This document shows, piece by piece, positions 7,496-60,409 of a stretch of DNA of 64,000 nucleotides. Source of the DNA: Escherichia phage vB_EcoM_FT; the sequence record MT682710.1; one strand, written 5' to 3'. The notes under the pieces are model-generated. The model was not told where the DNA came from. It saw only the letters and a list, made by a program, of their open reading frames with translations, and ran no database searches. The translations under genes and the position numbers were made by a program. The stretch's first letter is position 1. Each line of letters begins with the position of its first letter.

Positions 7496-8820
7496 TTGAT
7501 TTCCTCTAAATCTTTGGTGTATTCTGTAACTACATCAGTAGTTTTCCAATATTCGTTTTCTTCTTTTTTGGCTTTAGCTTCTTCAGCAAGTTTCTTTGCT
7601 TCGTCGGAAGTCATATGAAAAATGTTCATTCCAACTAGTTTATCAACATAAGAAGAATACATATCAATTTTAGAAAGTTCTTCGGTCAGTTCTTTGCGAG
7701 TTTTACCTTGTACAACAATTTCACCTGAAATTACTTTCTTAATGAAATGTGCCTTGGCAAAAGCTAAACGAAATGCTGATTCAGTTTCTTTGATTTTGTT
7801 ATCAATTCGTTTTTGGACATAAGTTTTACGAACTTCAACGAAGTCTTTGATTAAATCAACTACATTATCGTAAACTTGCAGCTTTCCTTTCTCATTAATG
7901 ACGGTAATATTCTGGGAACGACGCTCAATCAACCCGAAGTCTTTCATAATTTTTGCATGGCGTTCTTCTTCATTATCGCTCAAAGAGTATTCTTTTCGGA
8001 ATTTAACTTTGAAGCCAAAGCCATGCTCACCACAAGCATCATCCCATGTAATGAAGCCTTTATCTTCAAGCGGGTCTAAGATTTTACTCACATAAGTTTC
8101 ACGATCATACTTATATGGAATCTCAGTGATATGCATTTGAGTTCGTGAAGTAAACTTATATGTTCCACGAATTTCATATTGCCCATCAATTTCAACGACT
8201 TCACCACGAAATTCTGGGAATTCTACCTTCGGTTTAGTTACTTTCTTTCCTTGAAGAGCTTGCAGTACAGCTTTCTTGACAGAAGAAACACTATGAGGAA
8301 GAATGTAAGTTGCATAACCAGTTGCAATACCGGAAACGCCATTAAGAAGAACAGTAGGAATAATAGGCAAATAGAAAGCAGGCGGAATGTGTTCTTTATC
8401 TTGATGTACTGGAGCATATTCAGTATCTTTATATACGTTATAGAAATTTTTACTTACACGAGCAAAAATATAACGACTTGCTGCTGCCTTTTGGACAGTA
8501 CGAGAACCAAAGTTTCCTTGACCGTCTAACAGAGGAAAGTTATTATTCCAAGTGTTAGCCATCAAAGCACCTGCGTCTTGCGCAGAGTTTTCACCATGAT
8601 GATATCCAAGGTCCGCTACACCGCCTGCGATAGAAGCGAGTTTGTGAAACTTATCTTTATTTCCTCGTGCCAAATCAAGAGCTCGAGCAATAACAAATCG
8701 TTGAACTGGCTTAAATCCGTCAATCATATTTGGAATGGCACGATTTTCAACCGTGTACATAGCATAAGCCAATGCTTCATTATCAATGATACTTTTTAAA
8801 TCACGATTATTCAGTTGCAT
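7492..8820 (-). CDS. 52: DNA topoisomerase II medium subunit (GyrA-like)
   Basis: 442 aa, the T4 gp52 length; N-terminal type IIA topoisomerase cleavage-core sequence (...NRAIPNMIDGFKPVQRFV...). Confidence 0.9.
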   Translation of the reverse strand: MQLNNRDLKSIIDNEALAYAMYTVENRAIPNMIDGFKPVQRFVIARALDLARGNKDKFHKLASIAGGVADLGYHHGENSAQDAGALMANTWNNNFPLLDGQGNFGSRTVQKAAASRYIFARVSKNFYNVYKDTEYAPVHQDKEHIPPAFYLPIIPTVLLNGVSGIATGYATYILPHSVSSVKKAVLQALQGKKVTKPKVEFPEFRGEVVEIDGQYEIRGTYKFTSRTQMHITEIPYKYDRETYVSKILDPLEDKGFITWDDACGEHGFGFKVKFRKEYSLSDNEEERHAKIMKDFGLIERRSQNITVINEKGKLQVYDNVVDLIKDFVEVRKTYVQKRIDNKIKETESAFRLAFAKAHFIKKVISGEIVVQGKTRKELTEELSKIDMYSSYVDKLVGMNIFHMTSDEAKKLAEEAKAKKEENEYWKTTDVVTEYTKDLEEIK

Positions 8821-51270: not shown

Positions 51271-51540
51271 TTATCTAAGTAAACAGTATGCTTGGAATAC
51301 TTTTTCCATCATCTTTTTAAATTCATGAATATCTATATAATGACTAGTTAAATCAGCATGATATAAAAAGTCTAAAAACTTTTCATGTGTACTAACATAT
51401 TCACTTTCATTTAATTCAGAAACATGACTTTCCCAATATCCAACACCAGTTTTATTTGGGAAAAATGAAATTTTCATGTATTGGTCAACATAGAAAATGC
51501 CATAATTTTCAATAGTAATAGAAATATTAATAAATTTCAT
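51271..51540 (-). CDS. hypothetical protein (89 aa)
   Basis: ORF in the nrdH-55 interval. Confidence 0.4.
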   Translation of the reverse strand: MKFINISITIENYGIFYVDQYMKISFFPNKTGVGYWESHVSELNESEYVSTHEKFLDFLYHADLTSHYIDIHEFKKMMEKVFQAYCLLR

Positions 51541-51752
51541 ACATTCATCAACTTAGCCGCTTCAAGAGCTGCATCTAGTGAATCAAATTGGTCAACATAT
51601 TCAATCAATTCGCCATAATTGGCATATAACCACCATTGGCTAAATTCATACTCAAGGATGAATCCATTTCCTTCAATTTGAGTTAAACCATTGCCGTTTG
51701 TATTTACTTCATATCCGGCAAGACGCAAATCGTTAATAAGAGCTTCGTTCAT
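51537..51752 (-). CDS. hypothetical protein (71 aa)
   Basis: ORF with ATGA coupling. Confidence 0.4.
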   Translation of the reverse strand: MNEALINDLRLAGYEVNTNGNGLTQIEGNGFILEYEFSQWWLYANYGELIEYVDQFDSLDAALEAAKLMNV

Positions 51753-51754
51753 AA

Positions 51755-52081
51755 TTATACCTTAGTAATTTTCAGGTCTGCAAATTTTTTCTTGCGTTGA
51801 TTTTTCATGCGACGAATAGTTTTATCGGAAATTTCATGCTTTTGATAAGCTTTAGATTCTACACCAAAAGCTTTAACATCAAATTCTGACAAGATATATT
51901 GAACCAACAATTCACGGACAGTATTGCGTCCAATCTTCTGATCATTCTGTTTCATCATCTGATGAAGCTCTTTTTCCCATTTATCCAAAATTTGAGGAGT
52001 TACAATATCGCCTTTTTCTAGCAAAGAAACTACTTTATCATATGCGTAAGAATTAATGACGTTTTTAATTTGAATAGTCAT
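51755..52081 (-). CDS. hypothetical protein (108 aa)
   Basis: ORF with a basic C-terminus. Confidence 0.45.
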   Translation of the reverse strand: MTIQIKNVINSYAYDKVVSLLEKGDIVTPQILDKWEKELHQMMKQNDQKIGRNTVRELLVQYILSEFDVKAFGVESKAYQKHEISDKTIRRMKNQRKKKFADLKITKV

Positions 52082-53624: not shown

Positions 53625-53739
53625 ATTTTACCCTTAATTGATTAACCAAGCATTGATAAGCACTAAACTATATTGGGAATAAAATTCTGGACCAAAATGA
53701 AAAATCATATCATTTATAGTATCCATAATGTAATTCAAT

Positions 53740-54210
53740 TTAATCATGTTTCCACACCCCATCGGTATTTGACCAAAGCCGCTGATTATCTGATCCTCGC
53801 CACAGCTTTTTAGTCGGAAGATTTTTCTCATACTTCCCATCAATAATAACATCAACATATTTAAGCATTTCTAGCTGTTTAATATCTTCAAACTTATATC
53901 CTGTCCACAACCAAATGCTTTTATTGGGATAAAGATTTTTTACTGTTTGAACAATGCAATGAATAACATCTCGGTTATCAGGATAGAGAGGGTCTCCTCC
54001 AGTTATAGTTAATCCTTCTATATAATCATTATTCAAACATTCAATTAATTGCTCTAGTGTCTCTCCAGTGAATGGAATACCATTTCTAGCATTCCATGTT
54101 GATTTATTATAACACCCTTCGCATTTATGCAAACAACCCGTAACGAAAAGAACGACCCTGCACCCAGGGCCATTCACAAAATCACAGGGATAAAATCTAT
54201 CGTAATTCAT
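53740..54210 (-). CDS. nrdG: anaerobic ribonucleotide reductase activating protein (radical SAM)
   Basis: 156 aa; CxxxCxxC cluster (CLHKCEGC). Confidence 0.9.
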   Translation of the reverse strand: MNYDRFYPCDFVNGPGCRVVLFVTGCLHKCEGCYNKSTWNARNGIPFTGETLEQLIECLNNDYIEGLTITGGDPLYPDNRDVIHCIVQTVKNLYPNKSIWLWTGYKFEDIKQLEMLKYVDVIIDGKYEKNLPTKKLWRGSDNQRLWSNTDGVWKHD

Positions 54211-56024
54211 TGGTGTTTAACCCTATGCATGATTTCTTTATTTTTACCGAGATTAAATCCGCGTTCATTCGGATTTCCCAAATAACCACATGTTCTTCTT
54301 ATTGTGTTCATCTTTTTAGGATCAGTTTCTCCACAGATAGAACAAACAAATCCGTTTTCAGTAGGAGTCATTTCATGGGTACTTCCGCATGTAAAACACT
54401 TATCTACTGGCATATTAACACCAAAATAATCTAAATGCTGTGCAGCATAATCCCACACGGCCTCAAGACCTTTTAAGTTATTTTTCATATCAGGAAGTTC
54501 AACATAAGAAATGTGACCACCTGTCGCAATGAAATGATATGGTGCTTCACGAGAAATCTTTTCAAACGGAGTAATATTTTCTTCTACTGAAACATGGAAA
54601 CTGTTAGTGTACCAACCTTTATCGGTAACATCCTTTACACTTCCATATTTTTCGGTATCAAGTTTACAGAAGCGATAACAAAGGTTTTCAGCAGGAGTAG
54701 AATACAAGCTAAAAGCAAAACCAGTTCTTTCAGTCCACTGCTTAAGACGAGCATTCATTTTAGTTAAAATTTCTTGTCCAATATCACGACCGACAAGAAT
54801 ATTCAATTCGTGAATACCAATGTATCCTAGGGACACTGAACTTCTACCGTTTTTAAATAACTCAATTATGTCGTCATCAGGTTTAAGACGAACCCCGAAT
54901 GCACCTTCTTGGTAAAGAATAGGAGCAACAGTTGCTTTAACTCCTTTTAAGGAACTAATTCTACACATCAAAGCTTCAAAACATAAATCCATTCGTTCAT
55001 TGAATAATTCAACAAATTTCTGTTCATTGAACTGTGTTCCAATATAAGAATCTAACGCAATACGAGGAAGATTCAGTGTTACAACACCAAGATTATTACG
55101 TCCATCAAGAATTTCATTACCAGTCGAATCTTTCCATACGCTCAAGAAACTACGGCAGCCCATTGGAGAAACAGGAACAGATGAACCAGTGATAGCTTTA
55201 TTGTTCTTAGCTGAAATAATATCAGGATACATTCTTTTGCTTGCGCACTCTAAAGCAAGCTGTTTAATATCATAGTTCGGATCGTCTTTATAAAGATTAA
55301 CACCTTCTTCAACGAACATAACAAGTTTAGGGAAAATAGGAGTTATCCCATCACGACCAAGACCTTTAATACGATTTTTCAGAATTGCTTTCTGAATCAT
55401 TCGTTCAGTCCAGTCAGTTCCCGTACCAAATGTAATTGTTACAAAAGGCGTTTGTCCGTTTGAACTAAAGAGAGTGTTTACTTCATATTCATAAGCTTGA
55501 AATGCATCGTATACGTCTTTTTCTGTTTTAGATTGAGCATAATTCAACGCATCAGCGATTTGCCATTTTTCTGCATCCTCAATATGTTTTGCATATGTGC
55601 GTTTAACATAAGGAGAAAGTACTTTATCTACATTCGCAAAAGTCGTTCCGCCATATTGATGGGAAGCAACCTGTGCAGTAATTTGTGCCATAATTGCAGT
55701 AGCAACGCCAATTGATTTAGGAGTTTCAATCTGCGCATTACCGAGCTTAAATCCGTTCTCAAGCATTCCTTTTAAATCTACTAAACAGCAATTAGTAAAT
55801 GGAAGAGCAGGGGAATAATCAATATCATGGAAATGAATAATTCCGCTTTCATGCGCTTTCATAATAAAAGACGGGACCATATTTTTGGCAATGTGTTTAG
55901 ACACAATACCAGCCATAAGGTCCCGTTGAGTTGGAAAAACACGAGAATCTTTATTAGCATTCTCGTTCAAAAGGTCTTTATTGGTTTTATGAATCAATCC
56001 TTCAATTTCTTTTTCAATTGTCAT
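54207..56024 (-). CDS. nrdD: anaerobic ribonucleoside-triphosphate reductase, uninterrupted
   Basis: 605 aa; C-terminal glycyl-radical motif RRTCGYLG and a Cys zinc site; continuous ORF with no intron. Confidence 0.9.
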   Translation of the reverse strand: MTIEKEIEGLIHKTNKDLLNENANKDSRVFPTQRDLMAGIVSKHIAKNMVPSFIMKAHESGIIHFHDIDYSPALPFTNCCLVDLKGMLENGFKLGNAQIETPKSIGVATAIMAQITAQVASHQYGGTTFANVDKVLSPYVKRTYAKHIEDAEKWQIADALNYAQSKTEKDVYDAFQAYEYEVNTLFSSNGQTPFVTITFGTGTDWTERMIQKAILKNRIKGLGRDGITPIFPKLVMFVEEGVNLYKDDPNYDIKQLALECASKRMYPDIISAKNNKAITGSSVPVSPMGCRSFLSVWKDSTGNEILDGRNNLGVVTLNLPRIALDSYIGTQFNEQKFVELFNERMDLCFEALMCRISSLKGVKATVAPILYQEGAFGVRLKPDDDIIELFKNGRSSVSLGYIGIHELNILVGRDIGQEILTKMNARLKQWTERTGFAFSLYSTPAENLCYRFCKLDTEKYGSVKDVTDKGWYTNSFHVSVEENITPFEKISREAPYHFIATGGHISYVELPDMKNNLKGLEAVWDYAAQHLDYFGVNMPVDKCFTCGSTHEMTPTENGFVCSICGETDPKKMNTIRRTCGYLGNPNERGFNLGKNKEIMHRVKHQ

Positions 56025-56494
56025 TTTAAACTCTTTCTAAGCTGCTTCTTGAATGAAGCTATTAACTGTGTTTTTGTGTCAGATTCATTATATTCAAATC
56101 CTCTTTGAAGCATCTCGGCCATCATTTCCTCTTTTCCTAAACGAGAAAATTCCTTTGATTTATCTCCAACAAAGTTAGGGTGAATATTATTTTGGGTGTA
56201 ATCGGATTTTAAATAAGTAAGTAAATTTTCTAACCATTCAAGATAATCAACACCCTGTCCCTTTAAGCCAGAACGATTAAATTTATGCTTCATTTGACCT
56301 TCTGCGGCATTGCATAGATTACAAAGCAATCCACGTACCTTTCCTGCTTTTGGTCCATTTAATTCATGGTCATGGTCGAGGTGATTAGCTTGAACATCAG
56401 GATTTAGTTCTCGTTGGCAAATTAAGCATTTACCATTTTGTGCATCATAAAATTTCTGTTTTTCTTCTTTATATAATTTGCCAGTCAATAACAT
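56021..56494 (-). CDS. 49: endonuclease VII (Holliday junction resolvase)
   Basis: 157 aa, the T4 gp49 length; zinc CxxC...CxxC and a His-rich H-N-H-like region (HLDHDHELNG). Confidence 0.85.
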   Translation of the reverse strand: MLLTGKLYKEEKQKFYDAQNGKCLICQRELNPDVQANHLDHDHELNGPKAGKVRGLLCNLCNAAEGQMKHKFNRSGLKGQGVDYLEWLENLLTYLKSDYTQNNIHPNFVGDKSKEFSRLGKEEMMAEMLQRGFEYNESDTKTQLIASFKKQLRKSLK

Positions 56495-56665
56495 AATAAA
56501 CCCTTACCTTAAATAGATAAGGGTATTTATTATTTTCAAGTATTGTAAAACATTTGATTCAATCGCTTATATTGCCGAATCTTTTGGTCAGAAAAAGAAA
56601 TTTGAGTTTCAAGCCATTCAATGTATTCTGCGGCAGCTTGCATCAGGTTACCTTCATAGCCATCG

Positions 56666-57040
56666 TTATTTTTTTTGTGCAGCTAATTTAGCTAATGCGT
56701 ATGAAATACGTTCACCTTGAAAATCGGCTTTAGGCTTCTGAACAACTTGATTAGTTCGCTCTACAACTTCTTCAATTTCGCCATTTTCAATGGATTCAGT
56801 ATTCCACAAGCACCAATACGTAATTGGCTTATCATAGATGTTAATAATCTTTCCGTCGGAAAGTTCAATTTCAATAATTCCAGTATCAGGCTCTATATCA
56901 TCTTCACATTCTTTTGCAAGTTCACGAACTTTAAAGACAGTACCTGCACTAAGTTCCGGCCAGTAATTACACAGCCCTGTATCAGCACGATTAATTCTAA
57001 ACCACTTATCTACTGTAATCATGTCCCATCTCCATATCAA
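56666..57040 (-). CDS. hypothetical protein (124 aa), apparently truncated by a frameshift at an A8 tract
   Basis: ORF ends ...AQKK-TAA inside A8; the +1 frame continues open to 56536, giving about 167 aa in total. Confidence 0.5.
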   Translation of the reverse strand: MIWRWDMITVDKWFRINRADTGLCNYWPELSAGTVFKVRELAKECEDDIEPDTGIIEIELSDGKIINIYDKPITYWCLWNTESIENGEIEEVVERTNQVVQKPKADFQGERISYALAKLAAQKK

Positions 57041-57144
57041 TTAAGTCATTTATCGTTGGTTCATTATATACTGTTTCTTCATCAGTGTAAACCGGTTCTT
57101 CCGGCTCTGGCTCTACAGTTTCCCATCTAGCCGCCCACCAAGGT

Positions 57145-57354
57145 TTAACCCCGAAGCTTATTAAGTTCTTCATAATCAATCCAGGATTCTAGTCCTGATG
57201 GCAAATCAGATTCAATTTCCCAAAGAAGCTCTTCAATTTTCTGAAGACGATCTAGTTCTTCGGCTGGAATAGTAACCATTGACGGAGTTCTTGATACACT
57301 AATATCGTAAATCATATTTACCCCAGTTTGACCATACAATCGCCATATTTCCAT
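57145..57354 (-). CDS. hypothetical protein (69 aa)
   Basis: Acidic small ORF. Confidence 0.4.
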   Translation of the reverse strand: MEIWRLYGQTGVNMIYDISVSRTPSMVTIPAEELDRLQKIEELLWEIESDLPSGLESWIDYEELNKLRG

Positions 57355-57533
57355 TTAGAAATAGACTTTTCACCGTTAGAATAATAAACTTCGAGTTTAG
57401 CACGATTATTTTTAATTTGAATAACCTTTGCTGTCATCAAAGTTCCATACCCATAATAAACTGCAACCTCATCACCTACATATACCGCGCTTCCGCGGTA
57501 GTCATGGATATAATCAGTTCCTTCGAGCATCAT
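57318..57533 (-). CDS. hypothetical protein (71 aa)
   Basis: ORF with ATGA coupling to nrdC. Confidence 0.4.
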   Translation of the reverse strand: MMLEGTDYIHDYRGSAVYVGDEVAVYYGYGTLMTAKVIQIKNNRAKLEVYYSNGEKSISKWKYGDCMVKLG

Positions 57534-57793
57534 TTAAAGTATTCCCGCAATTGGTCAAATCCACCAATATGACTTCCATCAGGAGCAAATACTTGTGGCA
57601 TTGTCAAACCAATTTGAGTATCACGACCTAGTTTAGTCAGAAGCTCAGCGATTTTCTCATCATCAAAAACACCTTTTTCCGGCATAATGTTGATAAATTC
57701 AAACGGTTGTTTCTTCACAGTCAAGAGACGTTTTGCATTATCGCAATACACACATTTATGGATGTTGCTATCATAACCATATACTTTAAACAT
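57530..57793 (-). CDS. nrdC: glutaredoxin/thioredoxin NrdC
   Basis: 87 aa with a CVYC active site near the N-terminus. Confidence 0.8.
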   Translation of the reverse strand: MFKVYGYDSNIHKCVYCDNAKRLLTVKKQPFEFINIMPEKGVFDDEKIAELLTKLGRDTQIGLTMPQVFAPDGSHIGGFDQLREYFK

Positions 57794-57794
57794 A

Positions 57795-58037
57795 TTATTC
57801 CTTAATTCCTAGTACTTGTTTAAAAGTCTCGTCGTAATCAAGACTTTGGCCCGTTTGTTCTTTATGTTTGTATATAATATCACTTACTTCTGATAGCATA
57901 TTTTTATATGAACGAGTTAAAGCAGATTTAAGCACGCTGTATCTATCAGGAAATTTACCGTGTTCATTATAATAAGCTATTGCTAATTCACGGACTGCCT
58001 TTTCAGCAGTCTCCATATATTCTTTACGCTTGGTCAT
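57795..58037 (-). CDS. hypothetical protein (80 aa)
   Basis: ORF upstream of nrdC. Confidence 0.45.
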
Positions 58038-58039
58038 TT

Positions 58040-58429
58040 TTAATCCAAAATATTATTAGGCATTGGTTGAACACTCGCAAGTTCTTTAAAGAACTCAGTA
58101 GAGTCAGGTAATTTAACCATTTCCGGAGCATGCTTACTAAATTTATGTTTGCAATGACGGCATTTATATTCAAGTTCCGGTTTACGCCAGTTAATCAATT
58201 GAACTTGTTCAGTACCGCATTCAGGACAATTAGGAACGTTTTTAGAAGCCCTTTCGCGACGTTCAACCATAACCATAATAGCATCCCAGGCTGGAGGTTT
58301 AAAATCTAAATCATCACAACCATGAATCTTTCCGCGCATTTCCAGATCGTCTTCTTCACCAGCCATAATAATTTTAATTAGACTGGAATTACTTGAAGCT
58401 GCAATATCTTCTAATAGACGCTTTTTCAT
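58040..58429 (-). CDS. zinc-ribbon protein (129 aa)
   Basis: CPEC...CRHCKH four-Cys motif. Confidence 0.5.
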
Positions 58430-59355
58430 TTCAATACCTCAATAGCATTACGTAAACCATTTGCTTTTGCATTAAGAGCTTTTAACAATTTAGTGTGTTC
58501 GGCAATCTGAGCTTCAACTTCAACTAGTCGAGATTTGAGGTATTCACGTTCTTCGCTCAAGTTATCAATCTTTTCTACTTTAGGCTCTTTTACAACTGTC
58601 TTATATGTATTAGGGTTCTTCAGTTTAATTAAAATGCGTGAACTGTATAACATTGAACCATTATCTTCGGTTTCGTCATACATTTCTACTACGTCCATGA
58701 TTTTTAACATCATGCGGAGTTTATAAGATAACGAACGAATAGTTTTGTTGTGCTTATTAATTTCTCTAGAGTTCATGGTGCCGAGATTACGTGAGTAATA
58801 ATAAGGAACCTGGATATTAATTAATACTGATGAACCACCTGGCTTGTGTGTTACTTCATCAGCAATAACCCAATCCTTAACATGAACTGTATTTGTACGG
58901 TCATCGCCCGCGGTAAATAGTTTGCGAGCATGCTTAAAAAGCATATTCACTTGGTCATTGAATTGACAAGCAAATTTATCAGCAAATTTAGTTTCAGGAA
59001 TGGTAGATAACCAATCAGCCAAATGAGTCTTTTTAACATCGTTAACAATAGTAAATTCAACCAAATCAGTTATAGATGTCTCAGATTTAATAAAGCTCGG
59101 CTTCATAAAGTTTTTAATGTTATCGCGAGCTACAGTAGAAGATAACATACGAGAACGTTTAAACCATTGAAGCAAATTGCCCAACGAATGAGAATAAGCG
59201 TTTTGAGTATCTTTACAGATATGATTTTCCTGGCCAACATATTGAAGGAAATCACGAAGAATATTATTGATTACTGCCCTGTGTCCGATCTGATAATTAC
59301 GGTGTTTAGTAATAAGACTGTCAAAATAATCAATATAATGTTTACGAGTTTTCAT
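58426..59355 (-). CDS. large hypothetical protein with C-terminal coiled coil (309 aa), paralogue family member
   Basis: N-terminus MKTRKHYIDYF...; ends in a heptad-repeat helix ([42 protein letters not shown]). Confidence 0.55.
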   Translation of the reverse strand: MKTRKHYIDYFDSLITKHRNYQIGHRAVINNILRDFLQYVGQENHICKDTQNAYSHSLGNLLQWFKRSRMLSSTVARDNIKNFMKPSFIKSETSITDLVEFTIVNDVKKTHLADWLSTIPETKFADKFACQFNDQVNMLFKHARKLFTAGDDRTNTVHVKDWVIADEVTHKPGGSSVLINIQVPYYYSRNLGTMNSREINKHNKTIRSLSYKLRMMLKIMDVVEMYDETEDNGSMLYSSRILIKLKNPNTYKTVVKEPKVEKIDNLSEEREYLKSRLVEVEAQIAEHTKLLKALNAKANGLRNAIEVLK

Positions 59356-59407
59356 GTTCTTCTCACTTGGTTAATGATTTATACTCCGAGCCATCCTTGG
59401 CTTTAAA

Positions 59408-60409
59408 TTACTTAATTAACTGTAAAGCTTGTTCCAGACGATCAAGACGATTAACAGATTCTTCCCAAATCCTTTTAGCCTGCTCATATTCTTTCTGCGC
59501 TTTATTAGAAATTTCTAGAACTTCTTTATAAGCTTTTTCTAGTGCAATAACTTCTGGACGAATTTCTACCGGTTCAGGTGAATCGTCAAGACATTCCATT
59601 AGTTCCTCAAGGGTAGTTTCTTCTTTAGGAGTATTCACAATTTCATCACATTTTTGTTGGTAAATTTCTTTATCAGTAGGTGAATAAGCACATTTCACTT
59701 CACGAAGACTAATTACAATTTTATATCCTTCCCAACCGCATATATTCTTAAAAGGATAAGTATGAATATTTTCTACTGTTTCCATACAAAGTAATGCGGT
59801 CTCTAATTGACGAGTTATAGTGCTAGCAATTGAGAAAAATTTATTAATATTCTTTTGGTTAGTTTCTGGTGTAAAAAATCCATAATTCACAAAAATAGAT
59901 ACTTTATTTTTATCAAGTTCATATTCTTTTACGATAATCATATCAGAAGCCAAAGGATGAATTTGACGATAATCGCCATAACATAATTTAGAAGCTGATT
60001 TTAGAATTTGTCCTTTGAAAAGTCTGAAATTACTAATCCAACGACGAGTAAAAATATTCTCAGGGTCTTCTTTATTATTAAGATGATAAGAATTAACATC
60101 ACCGAACCAATTATATCCTACTACATCTTTAGTTCGTTTAATTTCTTTCCCAAAATTACCAAGAATATCCCGATTAACCAAATATGAAAGAAGACGAGAC
60201 TCTTTAAAGGTTTTCTTGATAAGATCTTTATCTACACGACTAGAAATTTTACGAATTTCATGAATAAATTTAGTAGAAGAAACAATACTTGCATCAACAC
60301 TATTGAGCCATTGATTGATAATAGAAAGAACGATATTTTGACCAAACATCGGTATAGCTTTATCATCAATAACGCTATTGAATGATTTGATATATTCGTT
60401 ACGAGTCAT
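59408..60409 (-). CDS. large hypothetical protein with C-terminal coiled coil (about 333 aa), paralogue family member
   Basis: True start is the ATG at 60409 (MTRNEYIKSF...) downstream of an early promoter and GGAG; the C-terminus is a heptad helix. Confidence 0.55.
   Translation of the reverse strand: MTRNEYIKSFNSVIDDKAIPMFGQNIVLSIINQWLNSVDASIVSSTKFIHEIRKISSRVDKDLIKKTFKESRLLSYLVNRDILGNFGKEIKRTKDVVGYNWFGDVNSYHLNNKEDPENIFTRRWISNFRLFKGQILKSASKLCYGDYRQIHPLASDMIIVKEYELDKNKVSIFVNYGFFTPETNQKNINKFFSIASTITRQLETALLCMETVENIHTYPFKNICGWEGYKIVISLREVKCAYSPTDKEIYQQKCDEIVNTPKEETTLEELMECLDDSPEPVEIRPEVIALEKAYKEVLEISNKAQKEYEQAKRIWEESVNRLDRLEQALQLIK

Follow-up and report, generated by a model that had tools for sequence, protein, structure and literature searches.

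The Lon protease inhibitor gene pin of Escherichia phage vB_EcoM_FT (FT) is interrupted by a run of eight As that breaks its reading frame. We put the probability at about 0.7 that this is a recent slippage frameshift, most likely inactivating a non-essential gene. In this interpretation the extra A arose by ordinary slippage, and no programmed frameshifting is involved. We infer slippage as the mutational route, loss of function and dispensability of the gene in FT's host.

The gene is located on the minus strand of the 64,000-nucleotide stretch of the FT genome that was analyzed (the window; Table 1). Its open reading frame ends with ...GCT GCA CAA AAA AAA TAA CGA TGG..., with the stop codon at 56668-56666. 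The A8 in the coding strand corresponds to T8 at 56669-56676 on the plus strand. Translation of the minus strand from 56670 to 56536 gives NNDGYEGNLMQAAAEYIEWLETQISFSDQKIRQYKRLNQMFYNT followed by a stop, a +1 frame of 44 codons that closes with the TGA at 56536. A sequence-only reading of this DNA had described the same ORF end (GCA CAA AAA AAA TAA), the same T8 and the same 44-codon frame, and our retranslation agrees with it exactly. It had also given lengths of 124 aa for the interrupted product and about 167 aa for the restored one, which need correction. The homologues all begin with MITVDKW..., which places the true start at the ATG at 57022. From this ATG, the truncated product is 118 aa long and the restored protein 161 aa. 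The 124-aa figure comes from a mechanical TTG-to-stop ORF, and the six codons upstream of the true ATG account for its excess length. The 118-aa product is identical to GenBank QLF81167.1, 'hypothetical protein FT_0235', in an exact-sequence look-up.

Table 1. Features of the pin locus of FT and its neighbors, in window positions.
Feature	Position	Strand	Basis
nrdC, glutaredoxin/thioredoxin, 87 aa; upstream synteny anchor	57530..57793	-	ORF and profile match
Sigma-70-like promoter match before pin, TTTACA-17-TATAAT, 11/12 matches, strong (predicted)	57063..57091	-	consensus scan only
pin 5' segment, ATG 57022 to premature TAA; 118 aa, M1-K117 plus one extra K	56666..57022	-	translation, Pfam PF10465, exact-sequence look-up
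A8 run interrupting the pin frame	56669..56676	coding strand minus	sequence and comparison with relatives
pin 3' segment, +1 frame, 44 codons (N118-T161 of intact Pin) plus TGA; conserved motif NNDGYEGNLMQAAAEYIEWLE	56536..56670	-	translation, Pfam, alignments
Internal ATG ORF, 35 aa (Met127-T161 of Pin), in the 3' frame	56536..56643	-	ORF list
Intrinsic-terminator-like hairpin and T-run between pin and gene 49, after the full-length stop (predicted)	56500..56524	-	sequence scan
Gene 49, endonuclease VII, 157 aa; downstream neighbor fixing synteny	56021..56494	-	PF02945, PF09124

The terminator-like hairpin between pin and gene 49 is the same element that is annotated as a terminator in phage G28. 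On the other side, two genes upstream of pin, a 69-aa ORF is found at 57145-57354 on the minus strand. This ORF, close to the Lon inhibitor gene, is annotated in RefSeq relatives as 'antitoxin from a toxin-antitoxin system'.

FT is a Tequatrovirus, and its disrupted gene is T4-type pin, whose intact product, PinA, inhibits the Lon protease of the host. The 5' product matches PF10465 (Inhibitor_I24, 'PinA peptidase inhibitor') with 119.6 bits at profile positions 2-111 of 136. The +1 frame segment matches the same profile at positions 112-135 with 31 bits, where the curated cut-off is 27 bits. The restored protein matches positions 2-135 with 164 bits, and is ~96% identical to the representative of the T4-type cluster. 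The gene order gene 49 - pin - nrdC in the window is also observed in slur03, vB_Eco_EL, G28 and ACG-C40, as well as in Logan contigs, and a 486-nt 'inhibitor of host Lon protease' is annotated at this place in hundreds of Tequatrovirus records. The profile matches and the synteny agree with the identity that had been suggested from the position between 49 and nrdC. Phage T4 PinA (UniProt P07068; MEROPS I24) belongs to the same PF10465 family and its gene occupies the same place. Unlike T4 pin, the FT frame is broken after residue 117, and only the N-terminal 118-aa fragment is encoded in frame. Because of this break, which splits the family motif over two frames, the FT locus is a disrupted allele of the PF10465 family and not an intact member. 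PinA binds Lon, resists degradation by it and blocks the breakdown of Lon substrates (PMC8835725, citing Hilliard et al. 1998, Skorupski et al. 1988). Reviews list PinA as a means to prevent Lon-dependent activation of toxin-antitoxin systems.

The reading frame of pin is intact in nearly all relatives. A tblastn search with the restored protein found Pin in one piece, with at least 80% query coverage, in 747 of 751 phage records from several genera of T4-type phages. All 60 tblastn rows that were sampled showed a single piece. In the relatives whose tract was read, the sequence is GCA CAA GAA AAT AAC, encoding AQENN, with AAGAAAA at the tract (Q116 E117 N118).

Compared to these relatives, the window has a G to A change and one extra A at the tract. 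When the 601-nt pin unit, which extends from promoter to terminator, was compared with that of 11 relatives, the window showed no private difference besides these two neighboring changes. An exact look-up of the hypothetical A7 product (AAQKNNDG) found one Logan contig, which is from the unrelated run SRR25400179. The pin unit in this contig is identical to that of the window at 600 of 601 positions. The sole difference is A7 in place of A8, and the gene is in frame with the substitution E117K. Removal of a single A had been predicted to restore a full-length protein, and this otherwise identical in-frame allele is a natural instance of it. The same protein with E117 is found in HP3, HP3.1 and vB_Eco_EL. 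The E117K substitution is thus a pre-existing in-frame polymorphism that made A7, and the FT allele is the A7 allele with one A added, because the SRR25400179 pin unit differs from it by run length alone.

The flanks of the pin unit in the SRR25400179 contig are 98.3% identical to the window over 10.6 kb and 97.2% identical over 6.7 kb. The A7 phage also has an extra 106-aa gene just upstream of pin (8392-8736 of the contig, L091; PF26835, Phage_T4_Y04K), which is missing in the window (57146-57158). Because the flanks are only ~97-98% identical and the extra gene is present, the source of this contig is a different phage sharing the same pin allele. The extra upstream gene, next to a pin unit that is identical apart from the run, suggests that small gene cassettes around pin have been exchanged in a mosaic fashion. 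A further variation in gene content is seen in the relatives PP355090, LR877332, MZ234027 and others. In these, the alignment of the 801-nt region around pin breaks into two pieces that together span ~1013 bp. This implies a ~210-bp insertion, with an additional 'hypothetical protein', at some point between 49 and 49.2.

Additional searches were performed for the two alleles. A 120-nt probe found no match among 367 phage records at 99% identity, so that an A7 or A8 allele within the same flanking sequence is excluded in these records. Neither A7 nor A8 was found in IMG/VR, JGI metagenomes or GTDB genomes. A pattern search with a variable gap returned mostly chance matches. It also returned four true pin matches in metagenomes, all four with GAAAA.

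The pin tract stands out in the window. It is the sole A/T run of at least 7 in the 64 kb, and elsewhere no run is longer than 6. A first-order Markov model predicts ~25 runs of at least 8 in the window, and ~111 kb of relatives' DNA contains a few runs of 7 and none of at least 8. The shortfall from this expectation and the rarity of runs of 7 in relatives indicate that these AT-rich genomes strongly avoid long homopolymers. The run in pin is far from a chance occurrence. Replication slippage of the Streisinger type at A-runs is the classical cause of the frameshift hot spots in the T4 rII and lysozyme genes, and the FT event resembles it as a single-base addition in an A-run of a T4-type genome. 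In FT, a substitution initially joined 2+4 As into A7, and expansion to A8 followed. The FT event differs from the T4 hot spots in that it is found in an accessory gene of a natural isolate and was not selected in a genetic screen.

The sequencing evidence for A8 was also analyzed. Record MT682710 (167,431 bp) was assembled with Geneious from Illumina MiSeq 2x300 reads at 134x coverage (SRR12228470; PMC7471389). A Logan contig from SRR12228470 is 100% identical to window positions 53666-60022 (6357 bp), A8 included. The Geneious and Logan assemblies were made by different assemblers from the same reads. The main rival to a real frameshift is a homopolymer miscall, in which the true allele is the in-frame A7 encoding intact PinA with E117K, and the extra A was introduced by library PCR, sequencing or consensus calling. 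Since an otherwise identical A7 allele exists in nature, an error of one base would suffice. A8 is unique to the FT genome and was seen in one isolate, and it is located in the only run of at least 7 in the window. Furthermore, a systematic stutter artefact of the library or PCR on a true A7 would appear in both assemblies, which share reads. However, MiSeq data at this coverage have a low indel rate at 8-mers, and both Geneious and the k-mer assembly of Logan give A8. A comparison with the close relative slur03 over ~42 kb of good alignment also argues against a miscall, as the pin indel is the sole indel in it that breaks a conserved reading frame. We therefore see no pattern of homopolymer errors, and consider a miscall at pin unlikely, while keeping it in view as a live alternative.

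Genome-wide homopolymer errors were considered as a separate cause and rejected, as the remaining indels relative to slur03 break no conserved frame. These single-base indels are intergenic, form compensating pairs in divergent stretches, or are located at one gene junction (~51757). The indel at ~51757 is the only other single-base indel inside a slur03 CDS, and the window has a normal two-gene arrangement there. The region at 51537-52081 in the window, with the junction near 51752-51757, contains a 108-aa gene and, next to it, a 71-aa gene. In RefSeq slur03 (NC_042129 131081-131626), the equivalent region is annotated as a single fused CDS of 181 aa, one base different from the window at the junction. 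The fusion in slur03 seems to be the exception, because the SRR25400179 contig (13800-14344) shares the two-gene layout of the window.

We next consider whether full-length PinA could be produced from A8 by recoding. To restore the frame, ribosomes would have to shift by +1 or -2, or the transcript would have to lose one A. The full-length product would then carry the junction peptide ...LAAQKNNDGYEGNLMQ... A -1 shift at the run leads to ITMAMKVT and a stop, and does not rescue the frame. The UAA is located directly after AAA. Re-pairing from AAA to AAU is imperfect at the last codon, but at the preceding codon, or with a -2 shift, the pairing is perfect. In programmed frameshifts of the prfB type, the shift site and the two-frame layout are conserved among homologues and stimulators are present, either a Shine-Dalgarno-like element, an RNA structure or both. 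In pin, the layout is not conserved. No Shine-Dalgarno-like element was found upstream of the run, in GCUAAAUUAGCUGCAC, and no stimulatory structure was indicated, with the surrounding RNA folding no better than shuffled sequences (z = +0.83). Transcriptional slippage is expected at conserved runs of sufficient length, usually at least 9 and in a few cases 8, and the FT run is A8 in one isolate. In bacteria, selection against such runs is typically evident from 9 nt (PMC1088944).

Several features could be taken to favor recoding, through a +1 or -2 shift of tRNA-Lys on A AAA AAA UAA, deletion slippage by RNA polymerase or heritable toggling between A7 and A8. A-runs are slippery for both tRNA-Lys and polymerases, the stop codon is immediately 3' of the run, the 3' frame is wholly intact, and A7 and A8 both exist on one allele background. 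Rescue at A/T runs has precedents in tssM (A11; PMC4256274), apoB (A8) and IS elements (A8/A9; PMC1088944). However, the site is not conserved, as the relatives read have an interrupted, in-frame AAGAAAA, and the sibling A7 allele is itself in frame. The lack of stimulators and the failure of a -1 shift to rescue the frame also argue against it. In reporters, deletion slippage by E. coli RNA polymerase was undetectable on poly(A) runs as long as A8, compared to ~10% on T8 (PMC6260861). An intact 3' frame is equally expected of a very recent mutation. Recoding is thus very improbable. A trace of full-length product by slippage is possible, and nothing suggests that it is used.

A related idea is that the A7/A8 run acts as a hypermutable switch or a leaky 'savior' indel. 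In such a scheme, Pin would be mostly off, with little full-length PinA made by polymerase or ribosome slippage, or the population would toggle between A7 and A8 and so tune Lon inhibition to the host and to Lon-dependent toxin-antitoxin defenses. For phase variation there are two observations only, one A7 (on) and one A8 (off) allele on a shared 601-nt background. The FT locus resembles Citrobacter rodentium tssM1 (A11), Thermus dnaX (A9), the IS elements (A8/A9) and the G7 'savior' indel of herpes virus thymidine kinase, in that an out-of-frame segment follows a homopolymer ending next to a stop. These systems have longer runs, or runs that homologues share, and their shifted products have been shown to be made. 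In contrast, the FT run is A8, is found in one isolate and requires a one-base deletion on poly(A). We regard a switch of this kind as highly doubtful.

The sequence-only reading had left three options for the broken frame. A recent pseudogenization is the best supported of these and an assembly error stays as a minority option. Programmed +1 shifting is disfavored, with the site absent from essentially all relatives, the sibling allele in frame and no stimulator.

The frameshift is located in the part of Pin that is most strongly conserved in our alignments. The stretch GERISYALAKLAxQENNDGYEGNLMQAAAEYIExLE is the best-conserved part of the protein, nearly invariant down to ~30% overall identity. 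In Pin of Serratia phage PS2, nothing outside this stretch aligns. The frame breaks mid-way in it, which deprives the product of two invariant residues, I134 and L137, and of four nearly invariant ones, E123, M127, Y133 and E138. In FT, no single continuous frame includes QENNDGYEGNLMQAAAEYIExLE.

An AlphaFold model of the protein has a mean pLDDT of 78.8, with lower values in the C-terminal part. The model contains a confident β-rich domain (residues 1-88), followed by a disordered linker, a short helix (106-114), a loop (115-121) and a long helix (122-159). The break is located in the loop. A sequence search for solved structures found none for PinA relatives. When the model was searched against the PDB with Foldseek, no match was significant (best E = 0.14), with a faint likeness of the N-terminal domain to small β-barrels. 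In our representative library, a protein of 2750 aa (P0055) is similar to Pin residues 58-112 at six distinct places (E = 2.4e-8), and may include repeated copies of a domain that resembles the N-terminal β domain of Pin.

Conservation and this medium-confidence model suggest that the 118-aa fragment is most likely inactive or much weakened as a Lon inhibitor, because the long C-terminal helix with the most conserved motif of the family is missing. It is very unlikely that a shortened or split Pin still works in FT, whether the 118-aa protein acts by itself or is joined by a 35-aa C-terminal peptide with its own start at the ATG at 56643, by possible re-initiation. The C-terminus of Pin does vary in nature. 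Pin proteins are 161 aa long, 148 aa long with the ending SFSDRAF, or 136-144 aa long in other genera. The internal ATG also has GAAGG 7 nt upstream, and begins 22 nt past the premature stop. However, all full-length variants that were aligned, including the shorter ones, retain residues 118-146, and only the tail past the conserved C-terminal motif varies. In addition, FT's own sequence is the only 118-aa form found in a collection of 15 billion proteins. The exact sequence of the 35-aa internal ORF was absent from the protein collection in a look-up, and its independent translation is speculative.

Our analysis suggests the following sequence of events for the slippage frameshift. An earlier G to A change (E117K) would have turned CAA GAA AAT into an in-frame run of seven As, giving an A7 allele that still circulates intact in another phage. 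In the FT lineage, replication slippage on A7 would have added one A to produce A8. Translation from A8 stops two codons later, giving a 118-aa product that retains the predicted N-terminal β domain and short helix and is without the long C-terminal helix. The 3' frame of FT is identical at the protein level to that of intact alleles. This argues that the event is recent, because the frame is still unchanged. In T4 genetics, pin is a non-essential accessory gene that is dispensable for laboratory growth. FT would tolerate the loss of pin because the gene is non-essential, and would stay viable without a working PinA.

The gene is known and the mutation is an ordinary one in a single isolate, which would not surprise a specialist. 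Its value is mainly practical, as 'hypothetical protein FT_0235' is better annotated as a frameshifted or disrupted pin. The allele is also a clean natural example of a substitution that makes a slippery A7, followed by expansion to A8, in a genome that otherwise avoids runs longer than 6. If FT is truly without PinA, it would be a ready-made natural pin mutant for testing how Lon inhibition serves a T4-type phage when it infects wild hosts, for instance in countering Lon-dependent toxin-antitoxin defense.
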